A stretch of DNA of 64,000 bases from NCBI GenBank assembly GCA_965238225.1, contig OZ250183.1:1-64000 (forward strand), in the 5' to 3' direction. This document shows positions 3,643 through 31,087 of this stretch, piece after piece. The notes under the pieces are model-generated. The model was not told the origin of the DNA, did not search any database, and saw only the letters and a program-made list of their open reading frames with translations. This DNA is from Gammaproteobacteria bacterium. GTDB taxonomy: Bacteria > Pseudomonadota > Gammaproteobacteria > Eutrophobiales > Eutrophobiaceae. A program made the translations under genes and the position numbers. Position 1 is the first letter of the stretch. Each line of letters begins with the position of its first letter.

Positions 3643-6600
3643 GAGCCGCCTCCATCACTGCGTCGTCTTCCGAGGTACCTTGTTGCCTGGCTTTTTTGAT
3701 GGCGGCTAATACGCGTTTATAATCCTTTGGCATCACTTTAACAAAACTTGAGTGATAATTTTTCCAATCATCCAGAATTTTCTTCGCCACAGTACTATGT
3801 GTGAACTCCGCATGCTTGGCTAATAGTATTTTAATTGTTTTTACGTCTTCTTCTTCGAGATCATCCAAATCGATCATGTCAAGATTGCATTGGATGCTAA
3901 AATCTTCTTTATCTGCCAACACGTACGCGATACCGCCTGACATGCCCGCACCAAAGTTTCGACCAGTTGAACCTATGACCAGCACACAGCCGCCGGTCAT
4001 GTATTCACAACCATGATCACCGATACCTTCAACTACAACGCTGACACCACTGTTTCTAACGGCAAAACGTTCGCCTGCAAGCCCACGTATATAAATTTCA
4101 CCACCAGTTGCGCCATATAGACAGACATTACCGACAATAATATTTTCTTCAGGCACAAAGATTGAATGTCTTGGTGGATAAACAATAATCTTACCTCCAG
4201 ACAATCCCTTACCAAGGTAGTCATTTGCATCACCTTCCAGCGTCATGGTCACACCTTTAGGTACGAAGGCACCAAAACTCATGCCAGCAGAACCATTGAA
4301 ATGTACACTGACGGTATCCTCAGGCAAGCCTTCTCCACCATATTTCTTAGTGATGTGATAGCCCAAAATGGTACCAACGCTACGATTGATATTCAATATT
4401 GGCAAAATAATATCTACTGATTTTTTACTTTCCAGCGCCTCCTTGCAAAGCGGCACCAGCGTTTTCACATCTAATGAATGCTCCAGCCTATGATTTTGTT
4501 TTTTGCTACAGTACACATCAGTGCCTGCATGAGGTTTTGGCTTGTAAAGGATGTTAGTAAAATCCAAACCATGCGCCTTCCAGTGAGAGGTGGCCTTTCT
4601 GACCTCAATCCTGTCGACCTGCCCAATCATTTCTTCAATAGTTCTAAAGCCTAATTGAGCCATGTACTCACGCACTTCTTCAGCAATATATTTGAAGAAA
4701 TTTTCAACGAACTCTGCTTGACCATCAAATTTCTTACGCAGTTCAGGGTTTTGCGTTGCTACACCCACAGGACAGGTATTCAAATGACAAACACGCATCA
4801 TCACACAACCCATCACTACTAAAGGGGCAGTAGAAAAACCATATTCTTCAGCACCGAGCAATGCAGCAATCACTACATCACGTCCAGTCTTTAACTGGCC
4901 ATCAGTTTGCACGACGATGCGATCACGTAATCCATTCTGCACTAGGACTTGTTGTGTTTCAGCTAGGCCTAATTCCCAAGGCAGACCTGCATGCTTCAGT
5001 GAGCTCATGGGGGATGCGCCGGTACCGCCATCATAACCTGAGACCAGCACGACATCAGAATGCGCCTTGGCCACACCTGCCGCAACAGTGCCGACACCCA
5101 CTTCAGCTGTCAACTTCACATGGATACGCGCTTCTGGATTAGCATTCTTCAGATCATGAATTAACTGTGCCAGATCTTCAATTGAATAAATATCATGATG
5201 TGGTGGTGGTGAAATCAAACCCACACCTGCTGTGGAATGACGAACCTTAGCGATCCACGGATAAACCTTAGCGCCCGGCAACTGTCCGCCTTCTCCAGGC
5301 TTGGCTCCTTGTGCCATTTTAATTTGAATATCATCGGCATTCACCAAATACTCACTGGTCACACCAAAACGACCAGAGGCTACTTGTTTTATCGAACTTC
5401 TTCTTAAATCACCATTCTCATCTGTAATAAAACGATCGGCATCTTCACCGCCTTCACCAGTATTTGATTTGCCACCAATGCGATTCATGGCAATGGCAAG
5501 TGTTTCATGGGCTTCTTTACTAATCGAACCGTATGACATAGCGCCAGTAGAAAAACGCTTCATGATATTTTTAATCGGTTCGACTTCTTCTAATGAAATT
5601 GATTTTTTCGCAAAATTGAATTCAAACAAGCCTCGCAAGGTTGCCAAATGTTCACTCTGATCATTCACCAACGATGTATATTCTTTGAAAATTTTGTACT
5701 GCCCGGAACGCGTAGCATGTTGTAACTTGAATACTGTATCTGGGTTAAATAAATGATATTCACCATCACGACGCCATTGATATTCACCTCCCCATTCTAG
5801 ATCAGGTTTTTTGACTTTTCTTTCTGGAAAGGCATTATGATGACGTAGGCTGGTTTCTTCGGTAATCTCTTGCAGGCCAATACCAGAAATTCGTGATGCA
5901 GTCCAAGTAAAATATTTATCAACGAATCCCTTATTTAAACCAATCGCTTCAAATATCTGCGCACCACGATAGGATTGCACGGTTGAGATACCCATCTTAG
6001 CCATGGTCTTGATCAGACCTTTATTCACTGCCTTGATAAAATTCTTCACCGCTTCTTCATGAGACATTTCCGGCACATAACCTTTGCCGATCAAACTAGC
6101 CAATGATTCAAAAGCCAGATAAGGGTTTACAGCGCCAATACCAAAACCAAGTAGCACAGCGAAATGATGCACCTCTCTAGGTTCGCCTGACTCAAGAATG
6201 AGTCCTATTTTTGTTCTTGAACCGCTTCCTATCAGGTGATGATGTACGCCAGCAGTGGCTAATAATGCTGGAATAGCCGCCTTGCGCTCATCAATACCAC
6301 GATCGGAAAGAATAATATTACTAAACCCTGACTCAATCGCTGTATCAATTTCTCTGAAAATATTGTTCAATGCCTTGTCCATGCCTACATGGCCATCTGC
6401 AATAGGAAAAAGAATATCTACGACTTTGGTCTTTAGACCCGGCAGATCCATATCACGGATACGTGCCAGTTCATCATTGCTTAAGATAGGCGAAGTTAAT
6501 TTTACCTGCCGACAACTTTCAGGAGTTGGTTTTAACAAGTTACCCTCAGGACCCACAGTGGTCGCAACCTGTGTCACTAGTTCTTCACGGATACCATCCA

Positions 6601-24721: not shown

Positions 24722-25996
24722 TTGCCTGCAAACCATAGTGAAATCTCATCCTTCATCTGGAATGTCTGTGACGATGTTCTTCGTGGACTCTTCAAACCCC
24801 ACGAATACGGTGATATCATTCTTCCTTTCACCGTCTTGAGAAGATTGGATTGTGTATTGGAAAAACACAAAGACACCGTGATTGATCTCTACAAGGAGTA
24901 TCAACCCAAGGTGGAAGATCCCACACCCATCATCCTCAATGAGATTCACACCACCTTCTTCAACCACTCCAAATATGATCTCAACCGACTAAGACAAGAT
25001 CCATCCAATGTTCAGATGAACTTCCAGAACTATCTTGGAGGATACAGTGAAAATGTGGTGAAGGTCATAGAAAATTTCCAGTTGGAGAGACCTGTTGAGA
25101 AGTTGAATAAAAGTAATCGACTTTTCCAGTTTGTTGAAAAGTTTAGTGAGATTGATCTACACCCGAATCGTGTTTCCAACCACCAGATGGGACAGATTTT
25201 TGAGGAACTGTTGAGGAAGTTCTCTGAGATGTCCAATGAAACCAGTGGAGAACACTACACCCCTCGTGATGTGGTTCGTCTATTGGTTTCAATGGTCTTC
25301 TCTGAGGATGAAGATGATTTACAAGGACAAGGAAAGGTCAGGAGTATTTTTGATCCTTGTTGTGGAACTGGTGGAATGTTGACCATTGGTAAAGAATGGG
25401 TTCGAGACAACATCAATAACAAAGTAGACTTTCGTTTATTGGGACAGGAACTCAATCCACAAACCTTCTCAATCTGTAAGTCAGATATGATGATTACAGG
25501 AGAGAACCCTGAGAATATTAAACAAGGTTCTTCACTTTCAGAAGATCGATTTCAGGGGGAACGGTTTGACTATATGGTGACCAATCCACCGTTTGGGGTG
25601 AGTTGGAAATCTGAAAAAGATTTTGTTCAGAATGAGAGTGAGAACCCACAAGGACGATTTTCAGTTGGGACTCCAAGAACTCCAGACGGTTCTCTGTTAT
25701 TCCTTCAACATATGATCTCCAAGATGGAGGACAAGGGTAGTCGAATTGGGATTGTCTTCAATGGTTCTCCTCTTTTTACAGGGGATAGTGGAAGTGGTGA
25801 ATCAGAGATTCGGAAATGGATCATAGAGAATGACTGGTTGGAGTGTATTGTCTCCCTACCTGATCGGTTGTTTTTCAACACAGGGATCTCTACATACATC
25901 TGGATCGTCTCCAACAAAAAATCAGGTAAACGACAAGGAAAGGTTCAACTGATTGATGGTTCTTCGTTCTTCAAACTTATTGAAGAAAATCATTAG
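24722..25996 (+). CDS. hsdM: type I R-M methyltransferase subunit, N-terminal part (frameshifted)
   Basis: ILPFTVLRRLD, GEHYTPR, DPCCGTGGML (motif I), NPPF (motif IV), LFFNTGI. Confidence 0.92.
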   Translation: MPANHSEISSFIWNVCDDVLRGLFKPHEYGDIILPFTVLRRLDCVLEKHKDTVIDLYKEYQPKVEDPTPIILNEIHTTFFNHSKYDLNRLRQDPSNVQMNFQNYLGGYSENVVKVIENFQLERPVEKLNKSNRLFQFVEKFSEIDLHPNRVSNHQMGQIFEELLRKFSEMSNETSGEHYTPRDVVRLLVSMVFSEDEDDLQGQGKVRSIFDPCCGTGGMLTIGKEWVRDNINNKVDFRLLGQELNPQTFSICKSDMMITGENPENIKQGSSLSEDRFQGERFDYMVTNPPFGVSWKSEKDFVQNESENPQGRFSVGTPRTPDGSLLFLQHMISKMEDKGSRIGIVFNGSPLFTGDSGSGESEIRKWIIENDWLECIVSLPDRLFFNTGISTYIWIVSNKKSGKRQGKVQLIDGSSFFKLIEENH

Positions 25997-26735
25997 GAAA
26001 CAAGAGGAAAAGAGATCTCTGATGAGGGTCGAGAATAAGATTGTTCAACATTACCTGAACTTTGAGGAGGATGAATTCTGTAAGATTTACCCTAATGAGT
26101 TTTTTGGATACACCAAGGTCACCATTGAACAACCCAAGGTTGAAAATGGAAAGGTCGTAACCGACAGACAAGGGAATCCCAAACCAGACACCAAGAAAAG
26201 AGACTATGAACGAATTCCTCTCAGTGAGGATATTGAGGAGTACTTTCAAAGAGAGGTAAAACCACATCTTCCTGACCTGCCCGCCCCATTGCCTAATTCG
26301 GATGAATATTGTACCTATGTTCTTAAATGCAGTGATGGCTCTTTTTATAAAGGGCAAACGAAGGATATACATAGAAGACTAGAAGAACATCACAAAGGAC
26401 ACGTAAGCTGGACATCTCAAAATTTACCTATAAAACTGATCCATTGGGAAGTTTTTGATACTAGGGAAAAGGCGGTTAAACGAGAACACTACTTAAAGAC
26501 AGGCAAAGGAAGAGAATGGCTTAAAAAACACTATGAAGAAGGCAAGCTGAAATCAATGGAACGGTGGCAGGCGGGTTCTTGGATGGATAGATCCAAGGAT
26601 AAAGTGGGATATGAGATCAACTTCACCAAGTATTTTTATCAGTATAAACCTCTTAGATCACTAGAAGAGATCAGTCAGGATCTCTTGAGATTGGATAAAG
26701 AGACAGAAGGGTTGATGAAGGAGATATTGGTATGA
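25953..26735 (+). CDS. hsdM: type I R-M methyltransferase C-terminal part carrying an in-frame GIY-YIG insertion
   Basis: FGYTKVTIEQP, YFQREVKPHLPD...SWMDRSKDKVGYEINFTKYFY are HsdM C-terminal motifs, interrupted by 100 aa. Confidence 0.85.
   Translation: MMVLRSSNLLKKIIRKQEEKRSLMRVENKIVQHYLNFEEDEFCKIYPNEFFGYTKVTIEQPKVENGKVVTDRQGNPKPDTKKRDYERIPLSEDIEEYFQREVKPHLPDLPAPLPNSDEYCTYVLKCSDGSFYKGQTKDIHRRLEEHHKGHVSWTSQNLPIKLIHWEVFDTREKAVKREHYLKTGKGREWLKKHYEEGKLKSMERWQAGSWMDRSKDKVGYEINFTKYFYQYKPLRSLEEISQDLLRLDKETEGLMKEILV
26276..26575 (+). mobile_element. 300-bp in-frame insertion encoding a GIY-YIG nuclease domain, bounded by imperfect inverted repeats
   Basis: TYVLKCSDGSFYKGQT..RRLEEH..G..P..L..E.F..R..A..RE..LK.GKGR; ends CCTGCCCGCC / GGCAGGCGGG; 14 GpC inside versus none in about 1.5 kb on each side. 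Confidence 0.8.
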
Positions 26736-26752
26736 ATCCCTATCCTTCATAC

Positions 26753-27461
26753 AAAGACAGTGGGGTTGAGTGGGTTGGGGAGATTCCGAGTGGGTGGAAG
26801 ATAAATCGACTTGGAATGATGGGTGTTTATTCATCAAGTGGGATTGACAAAGAAAACAATAGAAGAGAACCATTGTAAATATGGTGAACTATATGGATGT
26901 TTATGGAAATGGTTTACATTTATTAGATAGTTCAAGGAATTATATGACAGTTAGTTGTCCTTCAACAAAGGTTTTAGAACATCAAATAAAAAAAGGTGAC
27001 TTATTGTTTCTTCCAAGTTCTGAAACCGAAGTTGATTTAGGGTTATCTTCATTGATAGATGAAGAACTACCCAACACGGTATTTTTTATCATTTGGTGAG
27101 ATACCAATTTACAGTGAAATATATAAATTCTTTTAGAAAGTTTCTTTTTAATAATTACATCGTTTCAAATGAGTTTTCTAGACAAGGGAAAGGTACTACA
27201 CGACACCATTATTGGTAGGAATGATTCAGAAATATAAATGTAGTAATTCCACCTCTCCAAGAACAACAACAAATCTCCAACTACCTTGACCACAAGACCC
27301 AACAGATTGACTCTCTGATTGAGAAGACCCAACAGAAGATTGAACTACTGAAAGAACAACGAACCTCTCTGATCAATCAGGTGGTCACCAAGGGACTCAA
27401 TCCTGATGTAAAGATGAAAGACAGTGGTGTTGAGTGGATTGGGGAGATTCCGAGTGGGTGG
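26753..27461 (+). repeat. 45-bp direct repeat pair preceding hsdS TRD1 and TRD2 (26753-26797, 27417-27461)
   Basis: AAAGACAGTGG(G/T)GTTGAGTGG(G/A)TTGGGGAGATTCCGAGTGGGTGG, 43/45 identical. Confidence 0.85.
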
Positions 27462-28078
27462 GTAGTACAAAAATAAATATTTAGTATCTTACCAAGTAAT
27501 GTCAAAAGACTCTATCCAGAAGAGGTACATTTGGTTCGTCTATGTAACTATCTGATGTCTACTATGAATTCATAAGGTGTTCGGATCTTAACTCAAAGAA
27601 ATGGAAGATTTCAACCAGACATGATATTTGATAAGTTGAGAAGTTCGAAACAATGAAGTTTGATGTATCACAAAGGATTCTGAATCCCAAGATGATATAG
27701 GAAAGATACTATTGTAACTGAATGATTTGAAATTGATGTACGTATGTGGTTATCATCTAAACAAATGATGAATTGTATCCAAGAAATGTTGTGGGTGGTA
27801 TATCATTCTTCAGGTTTATTCAGTCAGTAGAAAAGGAAAGTAATTCAACAAAATTCAGATGTGATTTACTAAAGTTTGGACTTGGAAAACAGAATTGAAA
27901 ATATGTATTTCCCAGAACCAACCATCCAAGAACAACAACAAATCGTAGACTACCTCGACAAAGAAACCACCAAGATTGACTCCACCATTGAAAAGGAAAC
28001 CCAACGAATCGATCTCCTCAAAGAATACCGTCAGTCTCTGATCTCGGAAGTGGTAACTGGAAAGGTGGATGTCCGTGA

Positions 28079-28099
28079 CCTGCCTGTCGGCAGACAAGG
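28079..28099. repeat. 21-bp palindromic in-frame insertion (encodes LPVGRQG)
   Basis: CCTGCCTGTCGGCAGACAAGG imperfect hairpin; holds the only two GpC of hsdS; similar to the ends of the 300-bp insert. Confidence 0.75.
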
Positions 28100-28111
28100 T
28101 GAGGTGGTGGT

Positions 28112-31087
28112 ATGAGTCCAACCAACTACACAGAACAAGATTTTGAGGAACACATTGAGGAACAACTCACAAACAGTGAATACCACATTGTACCGCCCAC
28201 CAAATACGACAAAACCCTCTGTCTGATTCCCTCCAAACTGATCGAATTCATTAAAGAGACTCAATCCAAAATATTTGAGAAGCTAGAACTCCAATACGGT
28301 TTAGAAACAGAATCAAAACTGACCAAACGAATATCCTCCGAAATCGAATCTCGTGGGGTGATTGATGTACTTAGAAAGGGTGTCAAGGATAGAGGATGTA
28401 CTTTTCATCTGGTCTATTTCCAACCCAAATCAGGTTTGAACCCTGACCATCAAGAACTCTACAAGAAGAACAAACTGATCACGGTTAGACAGCTGAAGTA
28501 TTCCAAACACAATGAGAATTCTATTGATATGGGAATCTTCATCAATGGGATTCCTATTATGTTGTTGGAATTGAAGAACTCTCTCACTGGTCAGAATCAC
28601 AACGATGGAATCAAACAATGGAAGTTTGATCGTGACCCAAAGGAACCCCTTTTCAAATTCAAAAGGAATCTGGTCTATTTCTCAGTAGGAAATGAAAAAG
28701 TCTCAATGACCACCCGATTGAGTGGTTCCAAGACAAGGTTCCTCCCCTTCAACAAAGATATTGAGAATCCAGTCAACCCAAAAGGACACAAAACTCATTA
28801 TCTATGGGATGACATCCTACAACCCAACTTCGTATTAGATCTGATTGAGAACTTTGTCCATATCCGAACCGAAACCGATAAGGTTTACGATCCTCAGAAA
28901 AAAAAGGTTGTAGACAAAAAGAGTGAGGTGTTGATCTTCCCTCGTTTCCATCAACTCAATGTCATCCGAAAACTGAAAAGAGATGTGGTTCAGAAGGGAT
29001 CAGGACAAAACTATCTCATTCAACACACCACAGGTTCTGGTAAATCTCTCTCTATTGGTTGGTTGAGTCATCTTCTCTCTTCACTCTATCAATCACCAAC
29101 AGACACCAATCGAATCTTTAACTCTGTGATAGTGGTGACAGACAGAAGGGTTCTGGATAAACAGATCAGTAATACCATCAAACAACTGGAACAGACTAAG
29201 GGAGTGGTGAATCCAGTTGATGAAACAGCTCAACAGTTGAAGGAGTTACTTGAGTCTGGAAAGCCAATCATCATTACCACCATCCAAATGTTTCCTTTCA
29301 TTTCTGATCAAATTCCCAAAATGAAGAATAAGAAATTCGGAGTAATAATTGATGAGGTTCATTCTTCTCAAAGTGGTGAATCCTCCAAACACTTGAAGAG
29401 ATCTTTGTCAGACACTTCATTAGATGAATTTCAAGAAGGTGAAGGAAGTGGAGATCTGACAGAAGTAGATAAATTGATATTAGATGAGATCAAGTCAAGC
29501 GGGAAACAACCCAATATTTCATACTTTGGATTCAGTGGAACTCCTAAGAACAAGACCCTTGAGATCTTTGGTACTAAGACAGACAAGGGATTACAACCTT
29601 TCGATCTCTACTCAATGAAACAGAGTTTGTCTGAAGGGTTCACTCTGGATGTCCTCCAGAACTACACCACCTATAAACGATATTTCAAACTCAACAAGGT
29701 CATAGAGGAAGATCACGAACTTCCGAAGAGTCGTGTGAAGTCAATGTTGATGAGATGGGTAGACTTACATCCACATTCTATTAGAGAAAAATCCAAGATA
29801 ATCTTGGAACACTTCATCAACCATACTCAAAACAAGATTAGTGGAAAGAGTCGTGGGATGTTGGTGACTCGTTCAAGACTTCATTGTGTGAAGTACAAAT
29901 TGGAGTTTGATAAACAGATGAAGGAGAGGGGACTTCCTTTTCGTTCACTGGTAGGGTTTTCTGGGAAGGTATATGACGAAGATAGTCATCAGGAATATAC
30001 AGAGTCTTCAATGAATGGATTCCCAGAGGGTCAAACAGAAGAAAACTTAAAAGACCCCAAGTTCAGAATCCTGATTGTAAACAACAAATTCCAGACAGGG
30101 TTTGATGAACCGATGTTACACACAATGTATGTAGACAAGAAGATGGGTGGATTACAGTGTGTTCAGACCCTCTCAAGACTGAACAGAACAATGTCAGGAA
30201 AGACCGATACCTTCGTATTGGATTTTGTGAATGACCCTGATGAAGTTGGTGAGTCCTTCCAACCTTACTTCAAAGGTTCTGTTTTAACAGAAGAGACTGA
30301 CCCCAACCGACTCTATCAGATTGAACAGGAGATAAAACAGTACAACTTGTTCCAAGAAGAAACCGTCAACCTCTATGTGGATACCTTCTACCGTGAAGAT
30401 ATTCCGATGGAGGAATTACAAGGGATTCTGGATACCGTTGTTGAGGGGTGGAATGAACTGGAAGAAGAACAGGAGAACTTCCGCAGTCATATACAGAGTT
30501 TCATTAGACTCTATGGATATATTTCACAGATCATCACATTCAAAGACATCGGATTAGAGAAACTCTACATCTTCCTTCGTGGACTCAACAAGAAACTTCC
30601 AAGAAGACCTCCCACAGATCAACCTGAAATCCTTTCAACCGTTGACTTGGAATACTTCAAGATTGAGAAGAAGTACTCCGCTAAGATTGAACTGGAAGAT
30701 GAAGAGGGTGAATTACAAGGAATAAGTGAGGATGGTGTATCTTACAATGATGATGAAGAACCCGTTGACCTACTCTCAGAGATCATCCAGAAACTCAATA
30801 ACGCATTTGATGGAGATTTCTCTGATGAAGATAGAGTGAGAATTGAGAAGATCAAAGAACAGATTGACAAGGATATAGAACTTAGAATGGTGATGGAGGG
30901 GGATAATACAGATTCCAACAAGAAGGATAAGTTCAACCGTACCTTTGAAAAATTTTTGACAGATTTGGTAGATGAAAATATTGACTTCTACAATAAACTA
31001 AAAGAACCAAAGAAAAACAGATTTATGAAGGATCGTATGTATGAATTGTATGCAAAATCAATCAATGAGATGAGACCGAGTATTTAG
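28112..31087 (+). CDS. hsdR: type I R-M restriction subunit
   Basis: Nuclease D..INGIP...ELK, Walker A QHTTGSGKS, DEVH, FSGTP, FQTGFDEP, QTLSRLNR. Confidence 0.93.
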   Translation: MSPTNYTEQDFEEHIEEQLTNSEYHIVPPTKYDKTLCLIPSKLIEFIKETQSKIFEKLELQYGLETESKLTKRISSEIESRGVIDVLRKGVKDRGCTFHLVYFQPKSGLNPDHQELYKKNKLITVRQLKYSKHNENSIDMGIFINGIPIMLLELKNSLTGQNHNDGIKQWKFDRDPKEPLFKFKRNLVYFSVGNEKVSMTTRLSGSKTRFLPFNKDIENPVNPKGHKTHYLWDDILQPNFVLDLIENFVHIRTETDKVYDPQKKKVVDKKSEVLIFPRFHQLNVIRKLKRDVVQKGSGQNYLIQHTTGSGKSLSIGWLSHLLSSLYQSPTDTNRIFNSVIVVTDRRVLDKQISNTIKQLEQTKGVVNPVDETAQQLKELLESGKPIIITTIQMFPFISDQIPKMKNKKFGVIIDEVHSSQSGESSKHLKRSLSDTSLDEFQEGEGSGDLTEVDKLILDEIKSSGKQPNISYFGFSGTPKNKTLEIFGTKTDKGLQPFDLYSMKQSLSEGFTLDVLQNYTTYKRYFKLNKVIEEDHELPKSRVKSMLMRWVDLHPHSIREKSKIILEHFINHTQNKISGKSRGMLVTRSRLHCVKYKLEFDKQMKERGLPFRSLVGFSGKVYDEDSHQEYTESSMNGFPEGQTEENLKDPKFRILIVNNKFQTGFDEPMLHTMYVDKKMGGLQCVQTLSRLNRTMSGKTDTFVLDFVNDPDEVGESFQPYFKGSVLTEETDPNRLYQIEQEIKQYNLFQEETVNLYVDTFYREDIPMEELQGILDTVVEGWNELEEEQENFRSHIQSFIRLYGYISQIITFKDIGLEKLYIFLRGLNKKLPRRPPTDQPEILSTVDLEYFKIEKKYSAKIELEDEEGELQGISEDGVSYNDDEEPVDLLSEIIQKLNNAFDGDFSDEDRVRIEKIKEQIDKDIELRMVMEGDNTDSNKKDKFNRTFEKFLTDLVDENIDFYNKLKEPKKNRFMKDRMYELYAKSINEMRPSI

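Follow-up and report, generated by a model that had tools for sequence, protein, structure and literature searches.

MITEs, such as the Correia elements, are short, gene-less units bounded by terminal inverted repeats, with ends common to larger gene-bearing units; classical MITEs are accompanied by a target-site duplication. Rickettsia palindromic elements (RPEs), which are ~100–150 bp long, are palindromic repeats inserted in frame in protein genes, and we know of no nuclease partner for them. The hairpins of the REP/RAYT system are extragenic and are mobilized through single-stranded DNA, in dependence on a Y1 HUH transposase.

Two further precedents involve GIY-YIG nucleases. In the passages of Chenal et al. 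2025 (PMC11893778) considered here, Ssn is a single-domain GIY-YIG protein of ~94 aa tied to a short GC-rich hairpin repeat (NTS/dRS3, 'SRM'); binding and cleavage of the cognate hairpin repeat by Ssn nucleases are limited to single-stranded DNA, the cut being made alongside the hairpin. The same passages report that copies of the repeat often lie on either side of the Ssn gene, an arrangement that the authors liken to an IS, and that the repeats reach up to hundreds of copies (PMC11893778). Dunin-Horkawicz, Feder, and Bujnicki 2006 (PMC1564403) found a GIY-YIG domain inside the HsdR protein MCA0838 of Methylococcus capsulatus, a close homologue of which lacks the domain, and the passages dealing with MCA0838 call the case unique and take it as a recent insertion.

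Here we describe a 21-bp insert near the 3′ end of an hsdS gene in the window, by which we mean the whole 64,000-nucleotide stretch of gammaproteobacterial DNA that was analysed. We propose that it probably represents a decayed copy, free of cargo, from a family of GC-rich palindromic elements with the ends CCTGCCYG...CRGRCRGG, which also includes GIY-YIG cassettes such as the one carried by hsdM of the same operon.

The 21-bp insertion in hsdS and its operon

The type I restriction-modification (R-M) operon lies on the forward strand and comprises hsdM (24722..26735, with Pfam HsdM_N and N6_Mtase domains), hsdS (26732..28115), and hsdR (28112..31087), an intact frame of 991 aa that overlaps the hsdS stop at its start. 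From 24729 to 31050 it forms an island poor in GpC and in alanine, where the observed/expected (O/E) GpC ratio is 0.19 in hsdM, 0.04 in hsdS, and 0.09 in hsdR; the genome as a whole has a ratio of 1.35. Within the island, GpC is clustered only at two inserts: there is no GpC in 24729–26278 and none in 26572–28081, whereas 14 lie in a 300-bp insert in hsdM and two in the 21-mer in hsdS. Because both inserts carry GpC within an operon that is nearly free of it, both derive from DNA not subject to the regime that shaped the operon, and the operon acts as a natural tracer in which inserted DNA is visible base by base.

The 21-mer, at 28079..28099 on the forward strand, reads CCTGCCTGTCGGCAGACAAGG. 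It lies in the final 37 bases of hsdS, 13 nt upstream of the hsdR start, and splits an Asp codon (GA^T), and the C-terminal frame that contains it reads ...GKVDVRD[LPVGRQG]EVVV*, or equivalently ...LISEVVTGKVDVRD-LPVGRQG-EVVV*. Several features of the original prediction are borne out here: seven codons (LPVGRQG) are added near the hsdS C-terminus, excision of the 21 bp restores CGT GAT GAG, the only two GpC of hsdS are inside the 21-mer (at 28082 and 28090), and the lengths of both inserts, 21 and 300 bp, are divisible by 3. Its description as a palindrome is apt for a 5-bp core and not beyond it, the stem being weak; the predicted fold is a CTGCC/GGCAG stem of −4.7 kcal/mol (z −2.17), and 9 of 200 shuffled sequences fold equally well.

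The 21 bp are a true insertion. A DNA alignment of the hsdS ends with the three closest orthologues (L001, L002, and L017) contains one clean 21-column gap, and the empty site in L002 and L017, GTCCGTGAT|GAGGT, places the insert, with unambiguous boundaries, between the second and third bases of the Asp codon. In this alignment, the 21-mer is flanked by GTGA | TGAG and the unoccupied site reads GTGATGAG, with no target-site duplication. A wider comparison of HsdS C-termini, which had been suggested as a check on the prediction, agrees with this: 80 related loci were fetched with HsdM, and the LP..Q.G segment is absent from all 62 whose HsdS C-terminus is readable.

Contigs from public sequencing runs carry both states of the site. 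A near-identical contig of run X1 spans 28068–28600, includes the 21-mer, and differs from the window at two other letters. Related contigs of X3, X4, and X6 (marine or seawater runs from two studies) end at 28078, and loose contig ends cross the empty hsdS site in X3 (TGAGGTGTTA behind 28078) and in X6 (...GATGTCCGTGA before 28100). The X3 and X6 contigs also join 26272 to 26576 with AGA between, which is the empty hsdM site (CCA GAT TCT); empty-site alleles of both inserts are therefore present in marine metagenomes.

Parts of hsdM and hsdS are disrupted in the assembled sequence. A tblastn search with L002 HsdM follows hsdM in frame +2 to residue 417 and in frame +3 thereafter. This frame change, at about 25973–26033, falls in an A-rich stretch where related contigs are intact (...KKSLGNKR...) and differ by single-base gaps; contigs of X1 have single-base gaps against the window at several places in 25974–26037. 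The hsdS frame changes near 26878, and the assembled gene has 16 in-frame stops, all within its two variable target-recognition parts (26880–27880) and none in the conserved central and C-terminal helices, which are readable. X1 contigs show eight gaps against the window in 26775–27284, and no run in the comparison reaches 27492–27867. In view of the X1 gaps, part of the hsdM and hsdS damage may be assembly error or strain difference, and for hsdS real decay may also be responsible. Genetic code 4 was considered as an explanation for the hsdS stops and rejected, as it opened no sensible frame. At the DNA level, the operon was not found in the 60 relatives searched, the sole match being 137 nt at 69% identity in genome G030.

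The avoidance of GpC is an observation in its own right. Integrative islands that shun GpC so strictly that their encoded proteins are nearly free of alanine were seen in the window (24729–31050) and in L004, with further spans at L008:3701–19600, L012:201–17200, L029:7701–21200, and L066:8201–21200. Alanine makes up 1 of 410 residues in the window's HsdM and 4 of 991 in HsdR, compared with 49 of 578 in ArgS. About 20 of the 80 related hsdM genes have a GpC O/E of ≤0.1, in hosts of many phyla and with normal flanking DNA, and GpC-free stretches extend up to 13–17 kb. Across four such islands, all 44 ORFs of at least 110 aa contain 0–0.4% alanine, and the alanine-poor ORFs include tyrosine integrases, resolvases, an HNH protein, and R-M genes. 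The avoidance could be an escape from a GpC-directed nuclease, deaminase, or methyl-dependent restriction; the literature searched yielded no account of GpC-free or alanine-free islands.

In-frame GIY-YIG cassettes and cargo-less units

The 300-bp insert (26276..26575, forward strand) is an in-frame GIY-YIG cassette in hsdM (PHLPD^...^SWMD), preceded by CCTGA, followed by T, and bounded by the imperfect terminal inverted repeats CCTGCCCGCC and GGCAGGCGGG. It matches the Pfam GIY-YIG domain (E 1.5e-12), and its best solved relatives are the UPF0213 proteins PDB 1ywl and 1zg2; an NCBIfam search with the module gave nothing above cut-off. A search for intein features found no Hint domain, GIY-YIG being the sole Pfam match, and the junctions are D|LPAP and QAG|S. 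The cassette is present in a single copy in the source genome. In the protein collection, 35 longer proteins are homologous to its 99-residue module at 55–78% identity, in addition to a 100% match that is the window's own frame. These homologues lie in frame inside HsdM (the majority, at the same PH[LV]PD^[AST]W site), HsdR, Fic proteins, and others, and they always begin with LPAP or LPVP and finish with RQAG or RQTG.

From metagenomes, 80 of 295 confirmed cassette loci were kept, a sample biased by its start from the hsdM-borne module. All 80 have conserved ends, mostly CCTGCCTGCGCCGCG... and ...CGCGGCAGGCAGG, which form an imperfect inverted repeat of 13–15 bp. The regular expression used to place the ends missed 22 loci of the CCTGCCCGCC subfamily; among the 57 cassettes with both ends placed, 56 are 285–303 bp long and divisible by 3, the exception being L133, which has a nested element. 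GA directly precedes the cassette in 49 of 58 cases. There are 14 distinct host sites, ten of which follow the GA of an Asp codon, with C or T mostly as the next host base, which defines GA^Y as the common target. Both inserts in the window had been predicted to target CNTGA^T, and that motif does not extend to the family, in which only GA^Y is common and the bases upstream vary, Pro-Asp (CCNGA^Y) being frequent. The domains of the cassette hosts examined are those of type I R-M (M, S, and two R types), PglZ, an MmeI/Eco57I-like methylase, DUF1156, SNF2 helicases, and Fic.

Outside the window, the source genome has a second, stand-alone GIY-YIG gene (G000:C1:1487212–1487406), which codes for ~85 aa with 35% identity to the cassette. 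Just past its stop is a stretch resembling the 3′ half of a tRNA (T-arm and acceptor end), and aragorn called no tRNA beside the gene.

The existence of cargo-less versions of the GIY-YIG cassettes as a family is supported. Using a strict end pattern (CCTGCC[TC]G, 0–28 nt, C[AG]G[AG]C[AG]GG) we scanned 160 related loci totaling 1.89 Mb, which were gathered with hsdM and the cassette as queries, so that host range and enrichment are biased. The scan returned 41 short elements with strands merged, against 0–1 in each of ten shuffles. Their lengths are 21 nt (6), 27 nt (10), 30 nt (7), 33 nt (6), 36 nt (3), and 39 nt (9), all divisible by 3, and 40 of the 41 lie within frames open for at least 150 codons, with 24, 10, and 6 in the three codon phases. 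Cassette-bearing loci (0.55 Mb) hold 37 of the 41 and loci without a cassette (1.34 Mb) the other four, a ratio that is indicative only, as GC content differs. In L081, a 21-nt unit at 4320–4340 (CCTGCCTCGTCGGCAGACAGG) adds PASSADR to HsdM and folds like the window 21-mer, and the cassette of this locus is the closest to that of the window (76%). L121 and L122 also have a 21-nt unit, and these 21-nt units, together with one in L053, are the nearest kin of the window 21-mer. The conserved HsdS center TKG^LDP holds 30-nt units in L081 and L128 and a 27-nt unit in L118.

Other inserts in related loci also merit mention. A 33-nt family unit at L003:13154–13186 breaks the conserved HsdS N-terminal motif KDSGVEWIGEIP (KDSGV[PARAEQREAGG]EW), and the operon around it is likewise GpC-poor. 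HsdM in L081 (3312–5462) and proteins P0007–P0009 have small in-frame inserts of other sequence (e.g., ...KTEHAPSPQ... and ...GTGANAGTLHATSLQ...); their variable presence in close relatives suggests further families of translated mini-inserts.

The window 21-mer fits the family with some departures. Its left 9 nt match the family end and its right end matches with one extra A; the strict pattern skips it, and a relaxed end pattern picks it up. In the 1.72-Mb source genome, the relaxed pattern has three matches (the 21-mer, a native TolB motif, and a 44-nt match), against 0–1 in each of ten shuffled genomes. The TolB match, at G000:C1:302688–302708 on the native repeat motif APAWSPDG, is a chance match and serves as a false-positive control. 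The 21-mer itself has one copy in the source genome, with no second copy at up to four mismatches.

Both inserts had been described as sharing CCTGCC on the left and GGCAG..GG on the right, and as an autonomous/non-autonomous pair. The ends are of the same kind, and yet they belong to separate subfamilies. Those of the 21-mer, CCTGCCTGT on the left and GGCAGACA[A]GG on the right, are those of the LPVP...RQTG subfamily found in the HsdR cassettes L113, L115, and L139. This combination (CCTGCCTGT.../...CAGACA(A)GG) differs from the ends of the operon's own cassette (CCTGCCCGCC/GGCAGGCGGG), and the two inserts are therefore relatives and not a cognate pair. We also considered whether the T and A of the 21-mer arose by GpC erosion (GC>GT/AC) of a perfect CCTGCCTGCC|GGCAGGCAGG palindrome; this is unneeded, as CCTGCCTGT...CAGACAGG is a natural subfamily.

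In other genomes of the same phylum, hairpins occur in many copies. G326, G349, and G127 have multi-copy hairpins of 27, 29, and 30 nt with the form CCTGCCTGTGCG...CGCAGACAGG, whose ends are of the same subfamily as those of the 21-mer; some of these hairpins are nested. Forward/reverse matches number 33/31 in G326 (control 0/0), 27/24 in G349, and 17/14 in G127; G326 has ~33 hairpins in 1.3 Mb, the commonest copy being 29 nt long. As 29-nt copies exist, divisibility by 3 is probably a filter on survivors within genes and not a built-in property of the element. G127 also has a stand-alone GIY-YIG gene of 103 aa, with one hairpin ~100 nt upstream and another ~730 nt downstream. These genomes came from a phylum-wide scan in which 288 of 401 genomes match the pattern and a reversed-pattern control is often non-zero; the scan is too noisy in GC-rich genomes and was used only to choose genomes with a large excess.

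The suggested co-occurrence of hairpins with small GIY-YIG genes is not seen at the whole-genome level. Small or embedded GIY-YIG matches occur in two of five hairpin-rich genomes, G127 (stand-alone) and G400 (in frame in HsdR), versus four of five hairpin-free genomes of the same family. In the other three hairpin-rich genomes, which are 84–89% complete, GIY-YIG matches are confined to UvrC-length or cut frames (598, 608, and 163 aa).

Origin of the 21-bp insert

We favor the interpretation that the 21-mer is a cargo-less member of the palindromic family. Counted against it are the extra A at the right end, the 5-bp stem, the single copy in the genome, the absence of a target-site duplication, and the missing whole-genome link between hairpins and GIY-YIG genes in the five-versus-five comparison. 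The window copy, being single, degenerate, and probably inactive, is best read as a fossil, given its one copy, its extra A, its weakened stem, and the decayed-looking operon around it.

We propose that the family has two forms, hairpin-only units of ~21–39 bp and units of 285–303 bp with nuclease cargo. The larger units have the same inverted ends around a ~95-residue UPF0213/Ssn-like GIY-YIG nuclease, whose frame is predicted to be translated within that of the host protein (LPAP...RQAG). Insertion at GA^T in the hsdS tail kept the frame and added seven residues past the last conserved helix, and the 21-mer probably inserted either before the R-M island's time outside its present host or during it. 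The hairpin probably serves as the recognition module, by analogy with the Ssn nucleases. GIY-YIG enzymes act by hydrolysis, not by strand transfer; movement would probably proceed via single-stranded DNA with host repair.

How the insert reached its present size is a finer question, and we lean slightly toward its arrival as a hairpin-only unit over its being the remnant of a cassette that lost its cargo. The specific alternative that it is an excision or deletion footprint, in which a full cassette of the CCTGCCTGT/CAGACAGG subfamily at the hsdS site lost its interior and left ~10 nt of each inverted end, is one that we think rather unlikely. In its favor, the 21-mer consists of a left end joined directly to a right end and lacks a loop sequence, and related loci offer suggestive arrangements: in L108, a full cassette immediately follows HsdS ...GKIDVR, one codon upstream of the site equivalent to the window's; in L053, a 21-nt unit occupies precisely the hsdM site that holds cassettes in many other loci (VAD[LPDGQAG]AWMD), with the end subfamily of the cassettes there; and in L111 a mini copy directly follows a full cassette. 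However, no full cassette is seen at exactly the GA^T of the window, and the 21-nt type is also present where no cassette has been seen, in L081 hsdM (PASSADR), L121, and L086. Moreover, identical 27–39-nt units recur at unrelated sites with tens of copies per genome, which indicates that minis spread on their own.

It is very improbable that the 21-mer is instead a functional hairpin selected by the host, for example, for tuning hsdR translation or as a recombination site for hsdS shuffling. Its location, shortly before the overlap of the hsdS stop with the hsdR start, is suited to such a role and a small stem can form, but the stem is weak, the 21-mer is conserved in no related operon examined, ORF listing and Pfam scans reveal no second hsdS and no recombinase in the operon, and hsdS itself reads as broken. 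Least credible of all, with almost no probability in our estimation, is native, lineage-specific tail variation, in which the seven residues arose by slippage or drift and resemble cassette ends by chance: HsdS tails after ...DVR do vary in length among relatives and the end pattern can match by chance, as on the TolB motif at genome position 302688, but the indel is exact at a site otherwise identical to L002 and L017, the segment holds the sole GpC of hsdS, and a pattern expected 0–1 times per 1.72-Mb genome (both strands) falls on the inserted bases, in the operon that holds the genome's only cassette.

Returning to the family interpretation, we tentatively advance a broader version of it, which we regard as somewhat more apt to be wrong than right. 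The 21-mer may be the smallest unit of an undescribed class of translation-compatible hairpins that would enter single-stranded DNA at GA^Y and duplicate no target bases, would be moved by an Ssn-like GIY-YIG nuclease expressed within the invaded protein, and would prefer, and travel with, horizontally moving defense genes; the hosts included in this conjecture are type I R-M M, S, and R, BREX PglZ, a PglX-like methylase, DUF1156, SNF2 helicases, and Fic. If the family behaves as proposed, it would be a mobile element whose entry does not destroy the protein genes that receive it, with its nuclease made within the host protein and its cargo-less forms adding short LP...QAG loops. The family would then account, in R-M, BREX, and related proteins, for many odd inserts of 7–13 residues and for 'GIY-YIG fusions', would extend Ssn hairpin-nuclease biology to a transposon-like lifestyle, and would give a handle on how defense islands collect parasites.

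Comparison with described systems

The cargo-less units resemble MITEs in being short and gene-less, with terminal inverted repeats and ends like those of larger gene-bearing units. They differ in that the window 21-mer has no target-site duplication and one copy in its own genome (hairpins reach tens in other genomes), the partner is a GIY-YIG nuclease and not a transposase, and intragenic copies keep the reading frame. Neither RPEs nor REP sequences have the ends CCTGCCYG...CRGRCRGG, and, unlike the REP/RAYT hairpins, the window 21-mer is intragenic.

The literature searched yielded no account of GIY-YIG cassettes that sit in frame and carry inverted ends. MCA0838 is similar in that a Slx1/UPF0213-like GIY-YIG domain lies within a type I R-M subunit (PMC1564403); it differs in that the passages of that paper dealing with it make no mention of inverted ends, cargo-less forms, or a family.

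The likeness to Ssn, as described in the passages of PMC11893778 considered here, lies in the pairing of inverted repeats with the nuclease gene: inverted ends bound every kept cassette, and the stand-alone gene of G127 has a hairpin both upstream and downstream. The NTS as printed in that paper is not the family end sequence, and the terms 'in-frame' and 'inserted' do not occur in the passages searched, which describe no in-frame forms; by contrast, the nuclease of the present family is read as part of host proteins, with the hairpins lying within coding frames. The family appears to be an undescribed, in-frame version of the hairpin-nuclease theme known from Ssn.
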